Shown here: positions 43,749 through 51,476 of the stretch, in pieces
How the letters are laid out: every line of letters begins with the position of its first letter
How positions within the stretch are numbered: the first letter of the stretch is position 1
Source: Pseudomonadales bacterium
GTDB lineage: Bacteria > Pseudomonadota > Gammaproteobacteria > Pseudomonadales > Azotimanducaceae
Assembly: GCA_046582115.1 (NCBI GenBank)
Contig: JAYGFA010000047.1
Location: 207 to 64,206 of the forward strand
Length of the DNA stretch: 64,000 nt
Direction: 5' to 3'
Position numbers and translations under genes: made by a program
Notes under the pieces: model-generated
Told to the model about the DNA's origin: nothing
Databases searched by the model: none
Seen by the model: the letters and a program-made list of their open reading frames with translations, nothing else

Positions 43749-44531
43749 ATGAGCGTCATCGCTACGGATCACACGAACGTTGACTGGAGTCAGATTGTCG
43801 CCGATCTGAATCGGTTCCTTCGGCTGAGAACCACTCCCATCGGCATGAAAATGTTCGAAAACAAATCAGATATGGAAGCAATCCCGAAAATACGCCGACC
43901 CTCGGACGTCCACACCACAGATCAGATCGTCGGGCAGGCGTGTCGTAACGGTTGGACCGTTGGCATCACCGCCGAAGACCTCGTGGGTGCGCAGTGTCAG
44001 GTGGTCATTGGCCTCGCGCCTCGTAGCGAAGAGTGGCTGTCCGGAAGCAATATGGCCGGCGTTTGGTACGAAACAAAGGAAGAATCTTCCAGACACCAGC
44101 GCGCGATGGATGTTGCTCCGTACGGGGCGTTCGAAGCCATGGCCGTTAGTCCACTCGCAAGTGGTCGCCTATCTCCTCCAGATATTTGCCTTATCTACGC
44201 CACACCCGCGCAAATGATCTTGTTCATTAACGGGTTGCAGTGGGCCGGCTACAAGAAACTGGAGTGGGGATGTGTAGGCGAAAGCGCCTGTGCCGACAGT
44301 TGGGGCCGCGCACTCGCAACGGGAGAACCGAGTCTTTCGATCCCCTGTTTTGCGGAACGACGCTACGGGGGAGTGATGGAGGACGAATTGCTGATGGCTA
44401 TTCCACCACATTTCTTGCCCAAAGTGATCGACGGACTTGACCACTTGTCTCGCAATGGCTTGCGCTACCCCATCCCTCAGTACGGTATCAACAATGATGT
44501 TAGAGCTGGGATGAACGTCAGCTATCAGTGA
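43749..44531 (+). CDS. DUF169-like protein
   Basis: 260 aa. N-terminal LRLRTTPIGMKMF resembles the DUF169 start. Recalled from memory only. Confidence 0.4.
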   Translation: MSVIATDHTNVDWSQIVADLNRFLRLRTTPIGMKMFENKSDMEAIPKIRRPSDVHTTDQIVGQACRNGWTVGITAEDLVGAQCQVVIGLAPRSEEWLSGSNMAGVWYETKEESSRHQRAMDVAPYGAFEAMAVSPLASGRLSPPDICLIYATPAQMILFINGLQWAGYKKLEWGCVGESACADSWGRALATGEPSLSIPCFAERRYGGVMEDELLMAIPPHFLPKVIDGLDHLSRNGLRYPIPQYGINNDVRAGMNVSYQ

Positions 44532-45398
44532 GCTGGGCCTCTTTCGCATCCCCGAGAGACAATACAGCTTCGCGTAACACCTCGGTCAGCGCGTGACGAG
44601 ATTGACATCGTTCTAGCTCTCGGTGCGAAATCGGAGCACCGATCTTGAACCGAACGGTATCGCCTCTCATCTTAAGGGCCTCGCGTATCAAGGTCGCCAT
44701 ACGCAGCGGCTCGCTCAGCCAACTCGCGAAATGAAACAAACGGCTGTTTTGACCAAAAAATACACTGGTACGACGGTCGCTTTGCTTGCTTCCAGTAATT
44801 TGCGAACGTACGTCGACCAGGGAAACTCGGTAACCTGTCCAAAACTCGCGCGAGTCGTTGCAGTGGAAACCATGCCTGACGGAAAGATCAACACGGTTCC
44901 TCGTTCGTCAAGCATCTTTCGAGCGCGCCGTCGGGTATTCACGTGGTTGCGGACCGCAGCCCGGTTGGATTCAAATTCGATGGGAAGAAAGTACAGTACT
45001 AGGTCCTTGTCTTGGCATAGAACCGAATAAATAATGATGCCAAACGTCCCCCGAGTGCGAGTCGCGAGGTCGCACAACACAGCACCATCAACGATTCCGA
45101 AGCGATGATTTGCGACAAAGACCACGGGTCCTTGATCTGAAATAACGGTTTCTATTTCGCCGCTACGCTCGACGTTAATCGAAGCAAGGCACAGCGCGTC
45201 CGCAATAAAATGTTTCAATTCAAACGGTGTCCGTTTGAGTTCATCGTAGATCCTTTGCATTTCTTGGCTACCCAAAAGCCGCTCCATGACGCGCATGTAG
45301 ATCGCCTTGAGGCAAGGGTCGTTCGGTTCAACATACGAAATAACGGGCCTTTCCCGCGTATAAGCCGAACGTCCGGCGTTCGACGTCGTCGTGCTCAT
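44518..45398 (-). pseudogene. lysophospholipid (PlsC-type) acyltransferase split by a -1 frame change in a T6 run
   Basis: ORF 44715..45398 carries NHRFGIVDG (HX4D) and ends ...VVPVYF. The family-typical continuation GQNSRLFHFASWLS...RFKIGAPI is in the -1 frame (ORF 44518..44739). The junction is TAT TTT TTG G at 44755-44763. Confidence 0.75.
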
Positions 45399-45504
45399 GA
45401 AAACGGTCGAAGAAGTCTGCGAGATTCCATGAACAATCCCGTTAGTCTGTCAAACAGTGTTACCTGGGTCCCCGGTCTTACGCGAGCGGTTACCAGAATA
45501 TGCG

Positions 45505-46773
45505 TCATACCGTGCGCTGATATACGCGCCAAAAACGTCGGTGCAGGTCGAGTGTATGGACGCGCATGATCTCGACGCCACGACTCGCTAATTTTGCCGA
45601 CACAGCTAATGTTTCAGGGTCGCGTTCGCTCGGCGGGACCTTCGTCATTGACTCAAGATAAGACTTTCGACTATGGCCAAACAATAAGCGACAGTCGAGT
45701 TCCATCAATTCTCGTGCTCGACCTATGATTTCAAGAGACTGCGTCTGAGTCTTACCAAAACCAATGCCCGGATCGATGATCACACGTTCGCGCGCTATGC
45801 CCGCTCTTTCAAGTATTTCAAGGCGTTCGCCAAACCAAATGCGAAGAACAGCTAGCGGATCGCAATCGAGTGGCAGCACGTTATTGGGATCGGCGGGCAC
45901 CGACAAACTATGCATTAGTACGAGATCGCATCGACTATCCGCGAGAACCTCAATCATTTCTCGATCAGCGAGACCACTGACATCGTTAACGATCGAAGCA
46001 CCGGCCTCGATCGCCCGAGCGGCGGTCGCTGGCGATCTTGTGTCGATGCTTATTTTCGGTCGAAGCAGCCGCCCCGAAAAATGTTGATCGAGATGCTCCA
46101 GCACGGGTCCGACCCGGCGCCACTCCGTTTCGGGATCAACGTCGACGGCACCAGGGCGTGTCGATTCGCCACCAATATCGATGTAATTGCCGTCGAGCAA
46201 TTCGGGTTGCACCGCGGTTGGCTCATCGTCCTTTAACCAGCGTCCACCATCTGAAAACGAGTCGGGCGTAACGTTGATCACGCCCATCCACGCGGGCAGC
46301 GATTCATCGATCCGCCGCTTGAGCTGCAGCACGGTTTCCTTCGTACCAGGGAGACGGCGGGATGGAACGATTTCTGCCAAAGGGGCGAGCACGAAGGCGC
46401 GTTCCCTCACGCCAACGTGAGGAATAACGAGGTCGGGCGTGGTGATTGTCTCGTCATCGTACGCCAGCAAATCAACATCGATAATTCTGGGAGCCCATCG
46501 CTCTGCGTCGGCCCGGCCGAGGCGTCTCTCGATTGCTTGAGTTGCCGCCAACAGGTCATGGGGCTTCAAGGACGTTGAAAGTTCTACAGCTACGTTCAGG
46601 AAGGGTTTGTCCCACGTCGGCGGTGAACCTGGCGCAAGTAGCGCTTCACTCTCGTACAACGTAGACCATCGAAGCAGTGACGTTCCTGATAGCCCCGCCA
46701 ACGCTTCCATGCCTTTTTCCATATTGACGCATCGGTCTCCAAGGTTAGACCCGAGACCAAGCAACACGGTCAT
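45505..46773 (-). CDS. folKP: bifunctional HPPK (FolK) / dihydropteroate synthase (FolP)
   Basis: N-terminal LGLGSNLGD, ERWAPRIIDVDLL and IPHVGVRERAFVL match canonical HPPK. The C-terminal part has GVINVTPDSFSDGG and the rest of DHPS. Start ATG 46773 overlaps the upstream stop (ATGA). Confidence 0.9.
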   Translation of the reverse strand: MTVLLGLGSNLGDRCVNMEKGMEALAGLSGTSLLRWSTLYESEALLAPGSPPTWDKPFLNVAVELSTSLKPHDLLAATQAIERRLGRADAERWAPRIIDVDLLAYDDETITTPDLVIPHVGVRERAFVLAPLAEIVPSRRLPGTKETVLQLKRRIDESLPAWMGVINVTPDSFSDGGRWLKDDEPTAVQPELLDGNYIDIGGESTRPGAVDVDPETEWRRVGPVLEHLDQHFSGRLLRPKISIDTRSPATAARAIEAGASIVNDVSGLADREMIEVLADSRCDLVLMHSLSVPADPNNVLPLDCDPLAVLRIWFGERLEILERAGIARERVIIDPGIGFGKTQTQSLEIIGRARELMELDCRLLFGHSRKSYLESMTKVPPSERDPETLAVSAKLASRGVEIMRVHTLDLHRRFWRVYQRTV

Positions 46774-47648
46774 CGACGCGTTCGCATGATGAAGGCCGTT
46801 CCTCCACGGAGATCTGGGATGGGGGGGTGGCATTTACGTACTTCAAGCGTTAGTTCAGAACCAGATTCCGTCAACATCTCGCTCAATTCGTCTAAGCAAC
46901 ATCCGGCAAGATGTTCAATCGTCCGAAACGCACGGGAACCGACGAGCGCGATAACGTGTCGGCACATAACGCCGTAGTCTAGGGTTCCATCGATCTCATC
47001 GGTACTGCACGCCTCGGGCACGCTCGGAAACGTGACGTTAATGGAGATCGACACTTCCTGCGGATTCTCGCGTTCACTATCCGGTACGCCAAGACGGACG
47101 TCCACGCGGAGATCGTCTACCCGTAATTCTGGTCGTACTTGCGTTTGCGTTGAAACGGAGCTACACGCTACCGGGTGAACCGTGAGCGGTACCTCTTCGC
47201 GCTCCAGCCGAGACCAAAGCTCAGCAAACGTTCTACCAACCACGGGATGAACCCGTTCCGGTTCCAATTCAGACAAAGGCTTCAAGTAGTAAGCAGCCGT
47301 GACAGTTTCCGGGCGCGGTAAAACCAGGCGGTCATTCTCAATAACCACGTCCCCGAACAATAGTAAATCAAGATCGATCGTTTTCGATGCCAATCGCGGC
47401 GCCGCCAAGTCTTTGCCACCCCGGATTTCGATTTCATGGAGGACCCCAAGCACTTCCGACAACTGGATCATCGTTCGAAAACGAACCACCAGATTGACGA
47501 AATCATCACCCTTAAAACCGACGGCTGGGTTTCGATATGCCGTGGATAGCTCGATTGCCCCAAATCGCTCGCGCAAATCCGTGAGGGCTGCGCCGATACG
47601 CACATCCGGATCGACGTTGCTGCCAATCCCGACAAAAACATCAGTCAT
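46770..47648 (-). CDS. fusion of a divergent HPPK-like domain with a dihydroneopterin aldolase (FolB/FolX-like) domain
   Basis: N-terminus VGIGSNVD...TIDLDLLLFG is HPPK-like. C-terminus LRVDVRLGVPDSERENPQ...LDYG...FRTIEHLA...EVRKCHP is FolB-like. Start at internal ATG 47648. Confidence 0.75.
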   Translation of the reverse strand: MTDVFVGIGSNVDPDVRIGAALTDLRERFGAIELSTAYRNPAVGFKGDDFVNLVVRFRTMIQLSEVLGVLHEIEIRGGKDLAAPRLASKTIDLDLLLFGDVVIENDRLVLPRPETVTAAYYLKPLSELEPERVHPVVGRTFAELWSRLEREEVPLTVHPVACSSVSTQTQVRPELRVDDLRVDVRLGVPDSERENPQEVSISINVTFPSVPEACSTDEIDGTLDYGVMCRHVIALVGSRAFRTIEHLAGCCLDELSEMLTESGSELTLEVRKCHPPIPDLRGGTAFIMRTRR

Positions 47649-47670
47649 AGTAATCAGGTTGAAGCGTTCC

Positions 47671-48714
47671 TCAGCCAGCGGCGACCATGAAGTCACGATC
47701 TGCCAAGGCGTCAAATTGCGCCAGCACACGCCTGCCTTCACCGTGCTTGAGGATGCGTTCTTTAATAACGTTGTATTGTTGTTCGGCGGCGATACGAGGC
47801 TGCTGTTCCGTCGCCCAAGCAATGAGTTGTTCCCAAAACGGGTCCAGCACGTTGCTTCCTAATGCGGTCCCTCCATCTTCCGTTTTGAAGTGCAAGGACC
47901 GCAATTCACCAATGTATAGGCGTAGAGATTCGACATGGATTCGTTCGTCCGTCCGAATCCTCTCGACAATTTCCGCCGCCAACTCTGCTTCCGCACGTTT
48001 ATCGGTAAACAAATCATCGGTACGCAATGTTTCCTGTGTATTGGCGAATCCAATTTCGGCGCGAAATTCGATCACCAACAAATTCATCAAAAAACTGAGT
48101 GCCATTTCGTACGGCTGCGGAATTTGCGGCATCCACCGTCTGCCTGCCTCTGCACGACTTATACCTTGAGGCGGTTCGATGTCGGGGAATGCACCAGGAC
48201 CAAAAACCAAATCGCGCGTAACAAACCACATTACGTCGTGACCTCCGATGCCCTTTTCAGGTTGACCACCTTCGTCAATTCCGTGGGCTTCAAGAAGACC
48301 CGTCTTTAGGTGGCCGATCGCCATTTGGCCGATGTCTTCAACCACTAAATCTTGCATGTCCGGGAATGGCATGTCGGCAATCATCCGTCCACGCCCTTCG
48401 ATTTTTCCGGTAATCGTCAAGGTATTCCAGAAGGTTTGTCCAAGGCCTTCACGGATCAACAAGCGCTGTTGCTCCGAATTCGGTACCCGAGGCCCGCTCA
48501 AAAGAGACGCGTCAGCATCTAAAAGATCACCACCGCGATCACGCAGAGCGTCGGCCCAATTGGCGATCGCCACACCCCGTATTTTTGAGCGCGGTGGAAT
48601 ATAATCGCCGTCGGAACTGAATCCGCCATGTAATACCTGGCTATCGACGACATGCGCCGAAGCAAAATCGTGGTCCGTCATTAACTCGTCACGCGAGAAT
48701 AGAAGTTTCGCCAT
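47671..48714 (-). CDS. hypothetical protein (347 aa), first gene of the pterin operon
   Basis: Long ORF with SD AGGAG 7 nt upstream of ATG 48714 and protein-like composition. No family recognised. Helical C-terminal half contains D-E-R-I-H. Confidence 0.7.
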   Translation of the reverse strand: MAKLLFSRDELMTDHDFASAHVVDSQVLHGGFSSDGDYIPPRSKIRGVAIANWADALRDRGGDLLDADASLLSGPRVPNSEQQRLLIREGLGQTFWNTLTITGKIEGRGRMIADMPFPDMQDLVVEDIGQMAIGHLKTGLLEAHGIDEGGQPEKGIGGHDVMWFVTRDLVFGPGAFPDIEPPQGISRAEAGRRWMPQIPQPYEMALSFLMNLLVIEFRAEIGFANTQETLRTDDLFTDKRAEAELAAEIVERIRTDERIHVESLRLYIGELRSLHFKTEDGGTALGSNVLDPFWEQLIAWATEQQPRIAAEQQYNVIKERILKHGEGRRVLAQFDALADRDFMVAAG

Positions 48715-48801
48715 GACGGCACTCCTGGTAATCCAAGCTCTGCGATTCTAACCCAAGTTAACGGTCGCGGTAGGTGCCCCGACATGGTGGGTGCCCGGAG
48801 C

Positions 48802-50160
48802 TCAGTCGGTGGCGAAAGACTGCACCAGGTCAACCATAAAAGCGGTGCCCTTTGTCAACGTTTCTAACGAAATGCGCTCGTCATTCCCATGGACACCACC
48901 ACCTTCATTTTCTGTCAATGCCGTCGGCGAGAACCCGTAACTTTGGATCCCTACATCGCGAAAAAAGTGGCTGTCCGTGAATCCCGTAGAAACCCCTGGA
49001 ATTGCCGTCGCTCCCGGAAACCACTCGCTGGTCTTGGTCTCAATTAAACGAAACAGCGACGTATCCATGGAACTGCTTGTAGGTGTAAAGCTCATAATGC
49101 GTTCAATACTCACATCTCGATCATTCACAATGGTGGTCACTTCGGCAATAAATTCGTCCACGTCTTGATCAGGTACCAATCGACAATCGAGTTCAAGTAC
49201 TGCCTCGGGCGGAACCACATTAATTTTCTTACTACCCTGTAGCGTTGTCAGCGAGCAGGTATTACGTAACAGTGCGTGATATACAGGCGCGGTCATTTGT
49301 AACGTCCGCATGAATGCCGTATCAGTTACGTGAGCGCCTACGTCTTCAAACGCGCTTTTGAGTTCGGGTCGCTGAAATTGGGCAACCCCCCGAAATAAGT
49401 TAGCGACCGGCTCAATGACCCGTGCTTCGAAGCGCGTGTCTGCGAGACGTTGTCCCGCGCGCAAAATGCGCGTAATCGCCGTCTGTCCTAGTGGAACGGA
49501 ACCATGACCCGGCCGACCCCTCGCCGTTAAACGCAGCCAAACGGGTACTTTTTGAGTGACTTCAACGAAAAAAACGGTGTTGGTACTAAATCGTCGGCCG
49601 CCGCCGCCCTCATTAAGTACATAGCCAACGCCGTCAAAGATCTCAGAACGTTTTTCTAACAACCAACCAGCACCCAAGAAACCGCCGGCTTCTCCATCCG
49701 CCGTTGCTACATAGAGAACATCTCGATTCAATTTACTGCCCGACGCGTGCAGAGCCAAAAATGCCTGCAGCTGCATGATTCCGAGTGCCTTCATGTCGAG
49801 CGCACCTCGACCGTAAAGGTATCCTTCCTTGGTAATCCCCCCATAAGGGTCGACGTTCCAGTGCGAAGCATTGGCCGGAACCACATCAATGTGATGTAAG
49901 AGGACCAATCCAGGCTTTCCGTTGCCTCGCAGTCGCGCCCATAAGTTTCCACGTCCCGGCACGGATTCTGCCGTATCGTATGGAATGCCCGCCTGCTTCA
50001 GTATCCCGCCGAGAAATTCGACGCCGCGCGTTTCGTTGCCCGGCGGGTTGGTCGTATCGACTCTTATGTATGCCGCCAATCTCTCCGGCGCGAGCTCGAC
50101 GAACGGATCTCCCGAGCTCGAAACAAAGACCAATAAGACCAGAACAATCAAAGGGCGCAA
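48802..50160 (-). CDS. secreted M20/M25/M40 family metallohydrolase homolog
   Basis: Signal peptide RPLIVLVLLVFVSSS, HHIDVVP, GRGALDMK, ATADGEAGG (in place of xDEExG), VLNEGGG. TTG start with GGAG upstream. Confidence 0.75.
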   Translation of the reverse strand: MRPLIVLVLLVFVSSSGDPFVELAPERLAAYIRVDTTNPPGNETRGVEFLGGILKQAGIPYDTAESVPGRGNLWARLRGNGKPGLVLLHHIDVVPANASHWNVDPYGGITKEGYLYGRGALDMKALGIMQLQAFLALHASGSKLNRDVLYVATADGEAGGFLGAGWLLEKRSEIFDGVGYVLNEGGGGRRFSTNTVFFVEVTQKVPVWLRLTARGRPGHGSVPLGQTAITRILRAGQRLADTRFEARVIEPVANLFRGVAQFQRPELKSAFEDVGAHVTDTAFMRTLQMTAPVYHALLRNTCSLTTLQGSKKINVVPPEAVLELDCRLVPDQDVDEFIAEVTTIVNDRDVSIERIMSFTPTSSSMDTSLFRLIETKTSEWFPGATAIPGVSTGFTDSHFFRDVGIQSYGFSPTALTENEGGGVHGNDERISLETLTKGTAFMVDLVQSFATD

Positions 50161-50231
50161 ATGCGAACTCCGGTTTGCAGTTTAGTAATCGCGCTGCCAC
50201 CATGAATGGCCACCGGGGAGGGACCATACCG

Positions 50232-51476
50232 ATGAAATTTGGGATTTTCTACGAACACCAATTGCCACGTGACTGGGACATCGAAAGTGAACACCGGCTT
50301 TTAAAACAGTCCCTTGCTCAGATCGAACTCGCTGACCAACTGGGTTTCGACTACGCCTGGCAAGTTGAACATCATTTTCTCGAAGAATACTCGCACTCAT
50401 CAGCACCGGAGGTTTTCCTCGCGGCCGCTAGCCAGCGTACCAAGAACATCCGTCTCGGGCATGGGATCGTACAGCTGACCACCAATCATCCAGCCCGGGT
50501 CGCGGAGAAAGTGGCAACGCTCGACCTCGTTTCCGATGGCCGCGTTGAGTTAGGTTTAGGTGAAGGCGCTTCTGTCACCGAATTGCACCCTTTCAATCTG
50601 CGTTTTCGCGATAAGCGTGAGGTGTGGGAAGACGCCGTCCGCTGCACCCTGCCCATGTTCTGGAACCACGCCTGGGAATACGAAGGCAAGTTCTTCAAGT
50701 TCCCTTTACGAGCCGTAGTTCCGAAACCGCTTCAAAAACCGCACCCGCCATTATGGGTGGCTTGCTCGCAGCTCGACACCATTAAGTATTCCGCACACAG
50801 GGGTATGGGTTCACTGTGCTTCAAGTTCGTCAGTCTCGATGCGGCTAAAGCTTGGGTTCACGCCTACTACAACACGTTTATACATAACCTCGAAAAACTC
50901 GCCGACTATCAGACCAACCCAAACATCGCTGTCGTCGCGGGGTTCATGTGTGCCGAGACCGATGAAAAGGCATGGGAAAAAGCGGACGGATGGACATTTT
51001 TTCAGTTTGCTTTGCAGCTTTATAACAAAGAAGGCCCTTTCGAACCTGGATCCATGAATTTTTGGGAGCGTTACCAAGAATGGAAGAAAACGCCAGAAGG
51101 TCAAAAACGAACCGGTAGCGAACTCATTGGGTCTCCGGACACCATCCGCGAACGTCTGTTGGAGCTTGAAAAATCGCACGTGGATCAAGTGATTCTCCTC
51201 AACCAAGCCGGCAAGAATACACACGCCGACATCTGCTCGAGCCTCGAATTATTCGCCCGCGAAGTGATGCCCGAATTTAAGGAACGGCATGGCGAACAAG
51301 AAGAATGGAAACAAGCGGTACTTGCGGGTGACATCGAGCTCGAGGAAATCGACACCGATCCTTTCAACTTTGCCGCGCGGTTGAAGCCGAACCAGCCTTC
51401 AACAAGCGATGCCAAGGACATGATTTCTGGGGTTACCGGCCGACCGGAAGCCGAGTCGGTTCAGAGAAGTAATTGA
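50232..51476 (+). CDS. LLM class (luciferase-like) flavin-dependent oxidoreductase
   Basis: MKFGIFYEHQLPR..., FDYAWQVEHHF. Start ATG 50232 is preceded by GGGGAGGG. Confidence 0.85.
   Translation: MKFGIFYEHQLPRDWDIESEHRLLKQSLAQIELADQLGFDYAWQVEHHFLEEYSHSSAPEVFLAAASQRTKNIRLGHGIVQLTTNHPARVAEKVATLDLVSDGRVELGLGEGASVTELHPFNLRFRDKREVWEDAVRCTLPMFWNHAWEYEGKFFKFPLRAVVPKPLQKPHPPLWVACSQLDTIKYSAHRGMGSLCFKFVSLDAAKAWVHAYYNTFIHNLEKLADYQTNPNIAVVAGFMCAETDEKAWEKADGWTFFQFALQLYNKEGPFEPGSMNFWERYQEWKKTPEGQKRTGSELIGSPDTIRERLLELEKSHVDQVILLNQAGKNTHADICSSLELFAREVMPEFKERHGEQEEWKQAVLAGDIELEEIDTDPFNFAARLKPNQPSTSDAKDMISGVTGRPEAESVQRSN

Follow-up and report, generated by a model that had tools for sequence, protein, structure and literature searches.

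The DNA analyzed here is a stretch of 64,000 nucleotides of contig JAYGFA010000047.1 (positions 207 to 64,206 of the forward strand; assembly GCA_046582115.1) from a Pseudomonadales bacterium of the Azotimanducaceae, referred to below as the window. It contains three co-oriented genes on the minus strand, two of which encode fused enzymes of the pterin branch of folate synthesis. The first gene encodes a protein of 347 amino acids with no assigned function (47671-48714). It is followed by a gene for a 292-amino acid protein (46770-47648), in which a domain resembling HPPK (FolK, the pyrophosphokinase that acts on 6-hydroxymethyl-7,8-dihydropterin) precedes a dihydroneopterin aldolase (DHNA, FolB) domain, and by a gene for a 422-amino acid fusion of HPPK with dihydropteroate synthase (DHPS, FolP) (45505-46773). 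We denote the last two as the K-B and K-P genes, respectively, use B-K for fusions in the order FolB-FolK, and reserve the term HPPK-like domain for the kinase-derived part of the K-B proteins. A spacer of 22 nt (47649-47670; TGA, 22 nt and ATG in the sequence) separates the upstream gene from the K-B gene, whereas the stop codon of the K-B gene and the start codon of the K-P gene share the four nucleotides ATGA (46770-46773; the sequence reads cgtcgATGAccgtg), the junction of the two genes being read as cgtcgATGAccg. The ORFs (open reading frames) and the sequence agree with the orientation, gap and overlap given in a preliminary description of this locus, and both Pfam and NCBIfam domains agree with its assignment of the middle gene as HPPK-like followed by FolB and of the last gene as an HPPK-DHPS fusion.

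For both fused genes longer ORFs are conceivable. An in-frame TTG at 47822 would extend the K-B protein to 350 amino acids (extension 47649-47822), and an in-frame ATG at 46833 would extend the K-P protein to 442 amino acids (extension 46774-46833). Longer starts for these genes have been called in some databases (309-319-amino acid forms, P0121-P0125), but the alignment of homologs favors the shorter ones, the start MTDVF of the K-B protein being common to its homologs. The 422-amino acid K-P product is identical to a database protein (P0241).

Domains and catalytic residues of the fused proteins

The K-P protein matches the HPPK models PF01288 with 113 bits (cut-off 25.7) and TIGR01498 with 119 bits (cut-off 54.1), as well as Pterin_bind (PF00809) with 199 bits and the DHPS equivalog TIGR01496 with 244 bits (cut-off 162.6). 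To compare active sites, positions of E. coli HPPK were tabulated for 333 non-redundant HPPK domains aligned with MAFFT; the numbering was checked against PDB alignments, and the residue equivalences hang on this alignment, which is anchored to the E. coli enzyme. In the E. coli numbering, residues N55, E77, R82, W89, R92, D95, D97, H115, R121 and F123 are all present in the HPPK domain of the window K-P protein. Among K-P homologs, R82, W89, R92, D95, D97, R121 and F123 are invariant (127/127), and H115 is found in 125 of the 127. Judged by these residues, the kinase domain of the K-P fusion is fully canonical. Its DHPS domain carries the motif DPGIGFGK, which by eye we take to be E. coli-like and to be without an extra Phe. 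A role of the protein as a sulfonamide-resistance determinant was considered and rejected, since the NCBIfam models of Sul1-Sul4 score only 88-124 bits against cut-offs of 475-600.

The K-B protein consists of the HPPK-like domain (approximately residues 1-140; 47229-47648, minus strand), a poorly conserved linker (residues 141-171) and the FolB domain (residues 172-292; 46773-47135, minus strand). The FolB part scores above the cut-offs of PF02152 (67 bits, cut-off 31.8) and folB_dom TIGR00526 (60 bits, cut-off 45), stays below that of the equivalog TIGR00525 (59.3, cut-off 72.15), and has as its best PDB sequence match the paralog FolX (E=1e-5). Its catalytic tetrad is intact: E192, Y225, E245 and K272 are invariant in the 12 K-B proteins of the family alignment and correspond to E22, Y54, E74 and K100 of Staphylococcus aureus. 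In an alignment with 1DHN, the DHNA of S. aureus, the Tyr, Glu and Lys residues and the K..PPIP motif coincide; the match to E22 was judged by eye from the G..E....Q spacing. FolB, the second HPPK and DHPS all retain their catalytic residues.

The HPPK-like domain has lost the loop-3 arginines

The HPPK-like domain scores as an HPPK homolog (71 bits with PF01288 and 77 bits with TIGR01498, cut-off 54.1). In the window protein, however, it has the replacements R82K, R84L, R92K, H115R and R121A, and Phe at the position of Y53, while D95, D97, E77 and N55 are kept. These states recur in the 25 non-redundant members of the family. Position 82 is occupied by Lys in 24 of them and by Arg in one, whereas Arg is found in all 127 K-P domains and in all seven B-K fusions. 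At position 84, where the B-K fusions again have Arg (7/7), the HPPK-like domains have Leu (20/25) or Phe (5/25). R92 is replaced by Lys (20/25) or Gln (5/25); elsewhere Arg is found at this position in 61 of 62 FolKs encoded in linkage with folB, in 96 of 97 other FolKs, in 127/127 K-P domains and in 7/7 B-K fusions. F123 has become Tyr in 20 of the 25 domains, and Y53 has become Phe in 24, other HPPK domains having Phe or Tyr there. In contrast, the Mg2+ ligands D95 and D97, together with E77 and the pterin ligand N55, are kept in all 25 and are likewise conserved in the other HPPK domains. Li et al. (2003) reportedly found that the substitutions R82A and R92A cripple E. coli HPPK and that R92A slows its chemical step about 10^4-fold.

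Two further replacements are less informative. H115, kept in nearly all K-P domains, is Arg in 23 of the 25 HPPK-like domains, but also in 42 of the 62 folB-linked FolKs; R121 is Ala, Lys, Thr or Asn and never Arg in the 25, Arg in 127/127 K-P domains, and Tyr in 28 of the 62 folB-linked FolKs. As both residues are replaced in many folB-linked FolKs, these two changes are not specific to the HPPK-like domain, and, as some of these FolKs must be the sole FolK of their genome, H115 and R121 are not universally required. This gammaproteobacterial folB-linked FolK clade (loci L018-L070), in which H115 and R121 are widely replaced, keeps R82 and R92. Such variation could mislead calls of activity that are based on residues. 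What specifically marks the HPPK-like domain is that it has lost three arginines of loop 3, namely R82, R84 and R92.

To see how these regions evolve, we calculated pairwise dN/dS ratios (the rate of non-synonymous relative to synonymous substitutions; NG86 method, 6-10 pairs per region) within the window clade. The ratios were 0.10 for the HPPK-like domain, 0.13 for FolB, 0.18 for the K-P kinase, 0.12 for DHPS and 0.68 for the linker. The difference between the HPPK-like domain and the linker shows that the former is maintained by selection and is not decaying. Taking residue states and selection together, we would regard the domain as a retained HPPK homolog that should not be listed among the active HPPKs and that has probably lost kinase activity.

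Origin of the two kinase domains

Hidden Markov models (HMMs) for HPPK, FolB, DHPS and the upstream protein were built from our own alignments and used to scan the six-frame ORFs of 96 loci and the retrieved proteins. Among these 96 loci the K-B order was found only in the present family of 25 non-redundant sequences, which bears out the earlier view that it is atypical when compared with the known B-K fusions. In about 70 further loci, most of them from Gammaproteobacteria, folB lies directly upstream of folK or the two are fused in B-K order. The accompanying statement that folB, folK and folP are separate and dispersed in Gammaproteobacteria holds only in part, folB and folK being adjacent in 62 loci. 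Some candidates for further K-B fusions were discarded: long GTDB matches in Peregrinibacteria, Kiritimatiellae and Eisenbacteria have folB followed by folK, the usual order, according to the HMM scan, and a presumed homolog on a 3.1-Mb contig (P0151) proved to be a B-K fusion of the ordinary type, with tsaD and rpsU as neighbors.

The nearest relatives of the HPPK-like domain outside the K-B proteins are gammaproteobacterial FolKs of 162 amino acids, with which it shares about 50% identity; identity to the HPPK domain of the neighboring K-P gene is about 32%. In a simple neighbor-joining tree of 160 HPPK domains, calculated from BLOSUM62 distances, the HPPK-like domains are monophyletic (25/25) and nested in a clade of folB-linked FolKs, which comprises folB-adjacent, B-K-fused and stand-alone sequences, whereas those belonging to K-P fusions are monophyletic in a group of their own (43/43). 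This placement and the low mutual identity indicate that two old paralogs were joined and that the apparently duplicated kinase did not arise by local duplication. The HPPK-like domain, on this tree, descends from the folB-linked FolK paralog.

In many bacteria, notably Gammaproteobacteria, folK is present twice, once in a cluster with folB and once with panB (PMC1971073, PMC4814558). With a second FolK being normal in many members of this class and the HPPK-like domain deriving from the folB-linked copy, the duplicated kinase no longer supports a specialized pathway, for which it had been adduced in the preliminary description. In three Marinobacter loci a second, fully canonical HPPK gene lies on the opposite strand about 4 kb from the folB-folK pair (L024, 11153-11683; L050, 12322-12918; L052, 11962-12495), representing a FolK1/FolK2 duplication with both copies close together.

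The same four domains also occur unassembled. The metagenome-assembled genome (MAG) SMAG_U7134 (DATCLY01) has them as separate loci: in L065 folB is followed by folK, and in L094 a K-P fusion has a pabB-like gene next to it. In L094 (6001-9652) and in L095 (6001-8682), which come from two Gammaproteobacteria other than that of the window, the HPPK-DHPS fusion is convergent to or near the pabB-like gene (Anth_synt_I_N and Chorismate_bind domains). The flanks of the two loci, with genes for a zinc alcohol dehydrogenase, a TonB-dependent receptor and FdhD/FdsD formate dehydrogenase accessory proteins, form a conserved neighborhood that is unlike that of the window.

The conserved unit is a pair of genes

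The unit that is conserved is the two-gene pair of K-B and K-P. It was found in five independent contexts, namely the window clade (L005-L007 and L013-L016), L012, L017, L093 and L096. Three of these (L012, L093 and L096), each a different context, lack the upstream gene; in L017 the pair lies at a contig end, and the 9.5 kb available contain no homolog of the upstream gene. The two genes overlap by 4 nt in the window clade and also in L012 and L093; in L096 a gap of 44 nt lies between them. The K-P gene by itself is widespread: hundreds of K-P fusions about 45% identical to the window protein are present in metagenomes, and nearly all of its best 120 matches, most of them at this level of identity, carry both the HPPK and the DHPS Pfam domains. 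For five MAGs that are GTDB species representatives and harbor the pair, no second folB-linked folK was seen among the 573 relatives listed, a weak indication as the scan was pattern-based.

In the window, the locus is flanked by genes for an M20 peptidase, a luciferase-like oxidoreductase, a DUF169 protein and an enoyl-CoA hydratase. A pterin pathway of the methanopterin type was also considered, but nothing in the flanking genes supports it. In the window only, an acyltransferase ORF for 227 amino acids (44715-45398, minus strand) lies between the K-P gene and the DUF169 gene; the match of its product to lipid synthases of the OlsF/GlsA type is confined to their N-terminal acyltransferase part. 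In L005-L007 and L013-L015 DUF169 comes immediately after the K-P gene, without this ORF (L016 ends inside the K-P gene), and the ORF was probably inserted recently or is a fragment of a gene.

The upstream gene

The protein encoded upstream of the pair belongs to a family with more than 1590 matches, typically about 65% identical. All of them carry the label "hypothetical", and most come from MAGs of Pseudomonadales and other Gammaproteobacteria. An exact search with the window's own upstream protein retrieved no contig. Clustering yielded 562 representatives (50% identity, E<=1e-3), as compared with about 25 non-redundant K-B sequences. Searches of Pfam, NCBIfam and the PDB sequences gave no match, whether with the single sequence, with a profile of 28 sequences or with divergent members. 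An AlphaFold2 model was obtained with a pLDDT (predicted local distance difference test) of 85 and a pTM (predicted template modeling score) of 0.86, for which Foldseek returned no PDB match at E<=0.001; the weak echoes among its hits were ferritin, aldehyde-deformylating oxygenase and MiaE, with template modeling (TM) scores of 0.2-0.4. An identity as a CADD-like or AurF-like enzyme of p-aminobenzoate (pABA) synthesis was examined and dropped, no significant fold or sequence link being detected. The residues H135, D147, H159, H260 and E270 are invariant in homologs with 26-55% identity, and H29, E106, H144, E148, E216 and D256 are near-invariant in homologs down to 26% identity. The gene is very strongly conserved (dN/dS 0.06). 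The family looks like an undescribed metal-dependent enzyme and could represent a new class of such enzymes.

The gene has its own AGGAG Shine-Dalgarno sequence. Scans of 44400-50400 revealed neither a promoter-like nor a terminator-like site in the 22-nt spacer. The gene may be co-transcribed with the fol pair in the window, the evidence being the gap and the absence of a terminator-like site. The linkage is restricted to close relatives: the upstream gene followed by the pair was seen only in L005-L007 and in the GTDB species representatives L013-L016, all with a middle protein 77-100% identical. Upstream homologs with 62-71% identity have unrelated neighbors (L001, L002-L004, L008-L009 and L010), and five of these more distant loci (L001, L002, L008, L009 and L010), in four distinct contexts, are without the fol pair. 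In L008 and L010 the flanking genes for M20 peptidase, DUF169 and enoyl-CoA hydratase are kept and other genes occupy the place of the pair, from which it follows that the place taken by the fol pair, beside a syntenic core gene, is a variable one. The upstream gene appears to be a syntenic neighbor that is not functionally tied to the pair, and the argument for a specialized pathway drawn from a co-transcribed gene of no assigned function loses its footing. In a metagenome (ERZ21270939) that contains both the next-closest upstream homolog (L008, 71% identity) and the next-closest pair (L093, 54% identity for K-P), the two are on different contigs and, if both come from one organism, are unlinked there.

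Relation to described systems

HPPK-DHPS fusions, FolK duplication and an inactive folB-linked FolK are already described. The HPPK-DHPS of Francisella tularensis (3MCM, 4PZV) has the same domain order as the window K-P protein and a similar length (421-442 amino acids), matches it over the full length (E=3e-51) and shares with it an insertion in a loop of HPPK (PPTWDKPFLN versus APKEWDIRFLN). HPPK-DHPS fusions are also known from plants and many Proteobacteria, and the window protein matches the plant enzyme 7MPY. The window K-P gene differs from the fusions in L094 and L095 in that it overlaps a K-B gene by 4 nt, whereas no folB or K-B gene is adjacent to the latter.

The closest parallel to the HPPK-like domain is FolK2 of Acinetobacter baylyi (ACIAD2407). 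According to Thiaville et al. 2016 (PMC4814558), this protein is encoded beside folB, has neither R92 nor F123, does not complement E. coli folK and can be dispensed with by the cell. Both proteins are folB-linked, lack R92, have not kept F123 and coexist with a canonical FolK that presumably works. They differ in that the HPPK-like domain is fused to the N-terminus of FolB, whereas ACIAD2407 is encoded downstream of it, and in that the HPPK-like domain has lost R82 and R84 as well; moreover, the active kinase is fused to DHPS in one system and encoded beside panB in the other. The loss in ACIAD2407 was described as an exception specific to Acinetobacter (PMC4814558), and with that loss being clade-specific the HPPK-like domain looks like an independent second case.

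Fusions of the aldolase with an HPPK-family domain are known from SulD-type DHNA-HPPK proteins (Streptococcus pneumoniae, 2CG8, which is among the PDB matches of the K-B protein) and from the fungal FolB-FolK-FolP proteins. The SulD-type order is B-K and that in the window is K-B; furthermore, the HPPK-like domain lacks the catalytic arginines that the B-K fusions of the scanned loci keep. A fusion of FolB with a FolK that is duplicated internally was noted in Bifidobacterium longum by de Crecy-Lagard et al. 2007 (PMC1971073). As described, this protein likewise combines FolB with more than one FolK-type domain, but it comes from another phylum and is built differently. Full-text literature searches retrieved no description of the K-B order, of an obligate pairing with K-P or of a family-wide replacement of R82, R84 and R92. 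As to annotation, the preliminary description had allowed that the arrangement might be annotated across the clade already, and to a large extent it is: NCBI and JGI names for both fused genes are HPPK and/or DHPS, so that the K-B gene is annotated as HPPK although its kinase-derived domain lacks residues needed for catalysis.

Interpretation and alternative explanations

The preliminary description had left a choice between a replacement architecture for folate synthesis and a second, specialized pteroate-like pathway. Both supports of the latter have failed, and the former, without being proven, fits better. Most likely the pair represents ordinary housekeeping genes that have been packaged in an unusual way, and we consider it probable, if far from certain, that it constitutes the consolidated housekeeping pterin branch of this lineage with a non-catalytic kinase-derived domain. 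The two-gene operon would convert 7,8-dihydroneopterin into 7,8-dihydropteroate: the FolB domain would yield 6-hydroxymethyl-dihydropterin, the HPPK domain of K-P would pyrophosphorylate it, and the fused DHPS would join the diphosphate to pABA. Such a pair could have been assembled by rearrangement and fusion from a gammaproteobacterial folB, the folB-linked folK paralog and the second folK fused to folP. With an active kinase encoded next door, the HPPK-like domain would then have lost the loop-3 arginines and the H115/R121 phosphate ligands, and would have been kept as a non-catalytic or very weak pterin/Mg-nucleotide-binding module on the aldolase, with a role in scaffolding, hand-off or regulation. 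We prefer a housekeeping set because all enzymatic domains are canonical, because relatives possess the same inventory of domains and, weakly, because no second folB-folK locus surfaced for the five pair-bearing MAGs.

Several observations weigh against this interpretation. Members of the folB-linked FolK clade that must be active often lack H115 and R121; Lys sometimes substitutes for Arg in phosphate binding, so that the HPPK-like domain might have kept kinase activity; and the promoter and terminator scans of 44400-50400 gave results at or below shuffle expectation and do not inform the operon boundaries. The analysis covered the window and homologous loci, and a canonical folB, folK or folP may be present elsewhere in the genome. 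Finally, the pair lies in a variable slot between the upstream gene and DUF169, where L008 and L010 have other genes, and its contexts differ by lineage, five unrelated ones being represented. This would also fit a second, accessory pterin module, acquired horizontally beside canonical dispersed folB, folK and folP, which might serve in pterin salvage or repair, boost flux or make a non-folate pteroate-like product; FolK duplication has in fact been linked to pterin recycling (PMC4814558). We place such a module on the unlikely side. All three enzymatic domains are canonical, the DHPS passes the dihydropteroate synthase equivalog cut-off with no sign of an unusual substrate, the HPPK-like domain nests in gammaproteobacterial folB-linked FolKs and not in a foreign lineage, and the five pair-bearing MAGs showed no second folB-folK locus among the relatives listed, which counts for little.

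The remaining alternatives concern the HPPK-like domain and the upstream gene. That the former is a fully active second HPPK, with Lys standing in for Arg82 and Arg92 and two kinases at work, would accord with its scores above the Pfam and TIGR01498 cut-offs, its retention of D95, D97, E77 and N55 and the strong purifying selection. We nevertheless find this quite unlikely, given that position 92 is Arg in 284 of the 286 domains of the other three large groups but varies between Lys and Gln here, Gln being no substitute, that R84 has turned hydrophobic and R121 is lost, and that the only tested FolK without R92 is inactive in vivo (PMC4814558). Very improbable in our estimate is a functional operon of all three genes, in which the upstream protein, possibly a di-metal enzyme, would supply or modify the second substrate of DHPS, for example as a pABA synthase like chlamydial CADD. 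Its constellation of conserved His, Asp and Glu residues, the weak structural echoes of ferritin-like di-iron proteins, the 22-nt gap and common orientation in 8/8 clade loci and the K-P fusions beside a pabB-like gene in other Gammaproteobacteria could be read in this way. However, the upstream gene occurs alone in L001, L002-L004, L008-L009 and L010 and is missing beside the pair in L012, L093 and L096, its family is far larger than the K-B family, its Shine-Dalgarno sequence is strong and its own, and the protein has no significant match to CADD, AurF or any known enzyme.

A more specific role of the HPPK-like domain can be proposed, although we consider it unlikely as it stands: a dedicated pseudo-kinase that binds hydroxymethyl-dihydropterin and/or Mg-nucleotide without transfer. 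Located on the FolB oligomer, it might capture the labile aldolase product for HPPK-DHPS, or sense pterin or ATP and gate the flux. If true, this would be the first pseudoenzyme-mediated hand-off in bacterial folate synthesis.

Implications

The finding leaves the known chemistry of the pathway unchanged. Its practical consequence is for annotation, as metabolic reconstructions of these abundant marine Gammaproteobacteria would contain one working kinase too many and possibly miss the aldolase. The compact module leading from dihydroneopterin to dihydropteroate would be a handy unit for studying substrate hand-off between folate enzymes. After Acinetobacter FolK2, the K-B family would provide a second independent case of a folB-linked FolK that has lost R92 and is yet retained, which sharpens the question, raised in 2007 and again in 2016, of the role of the second FolK.

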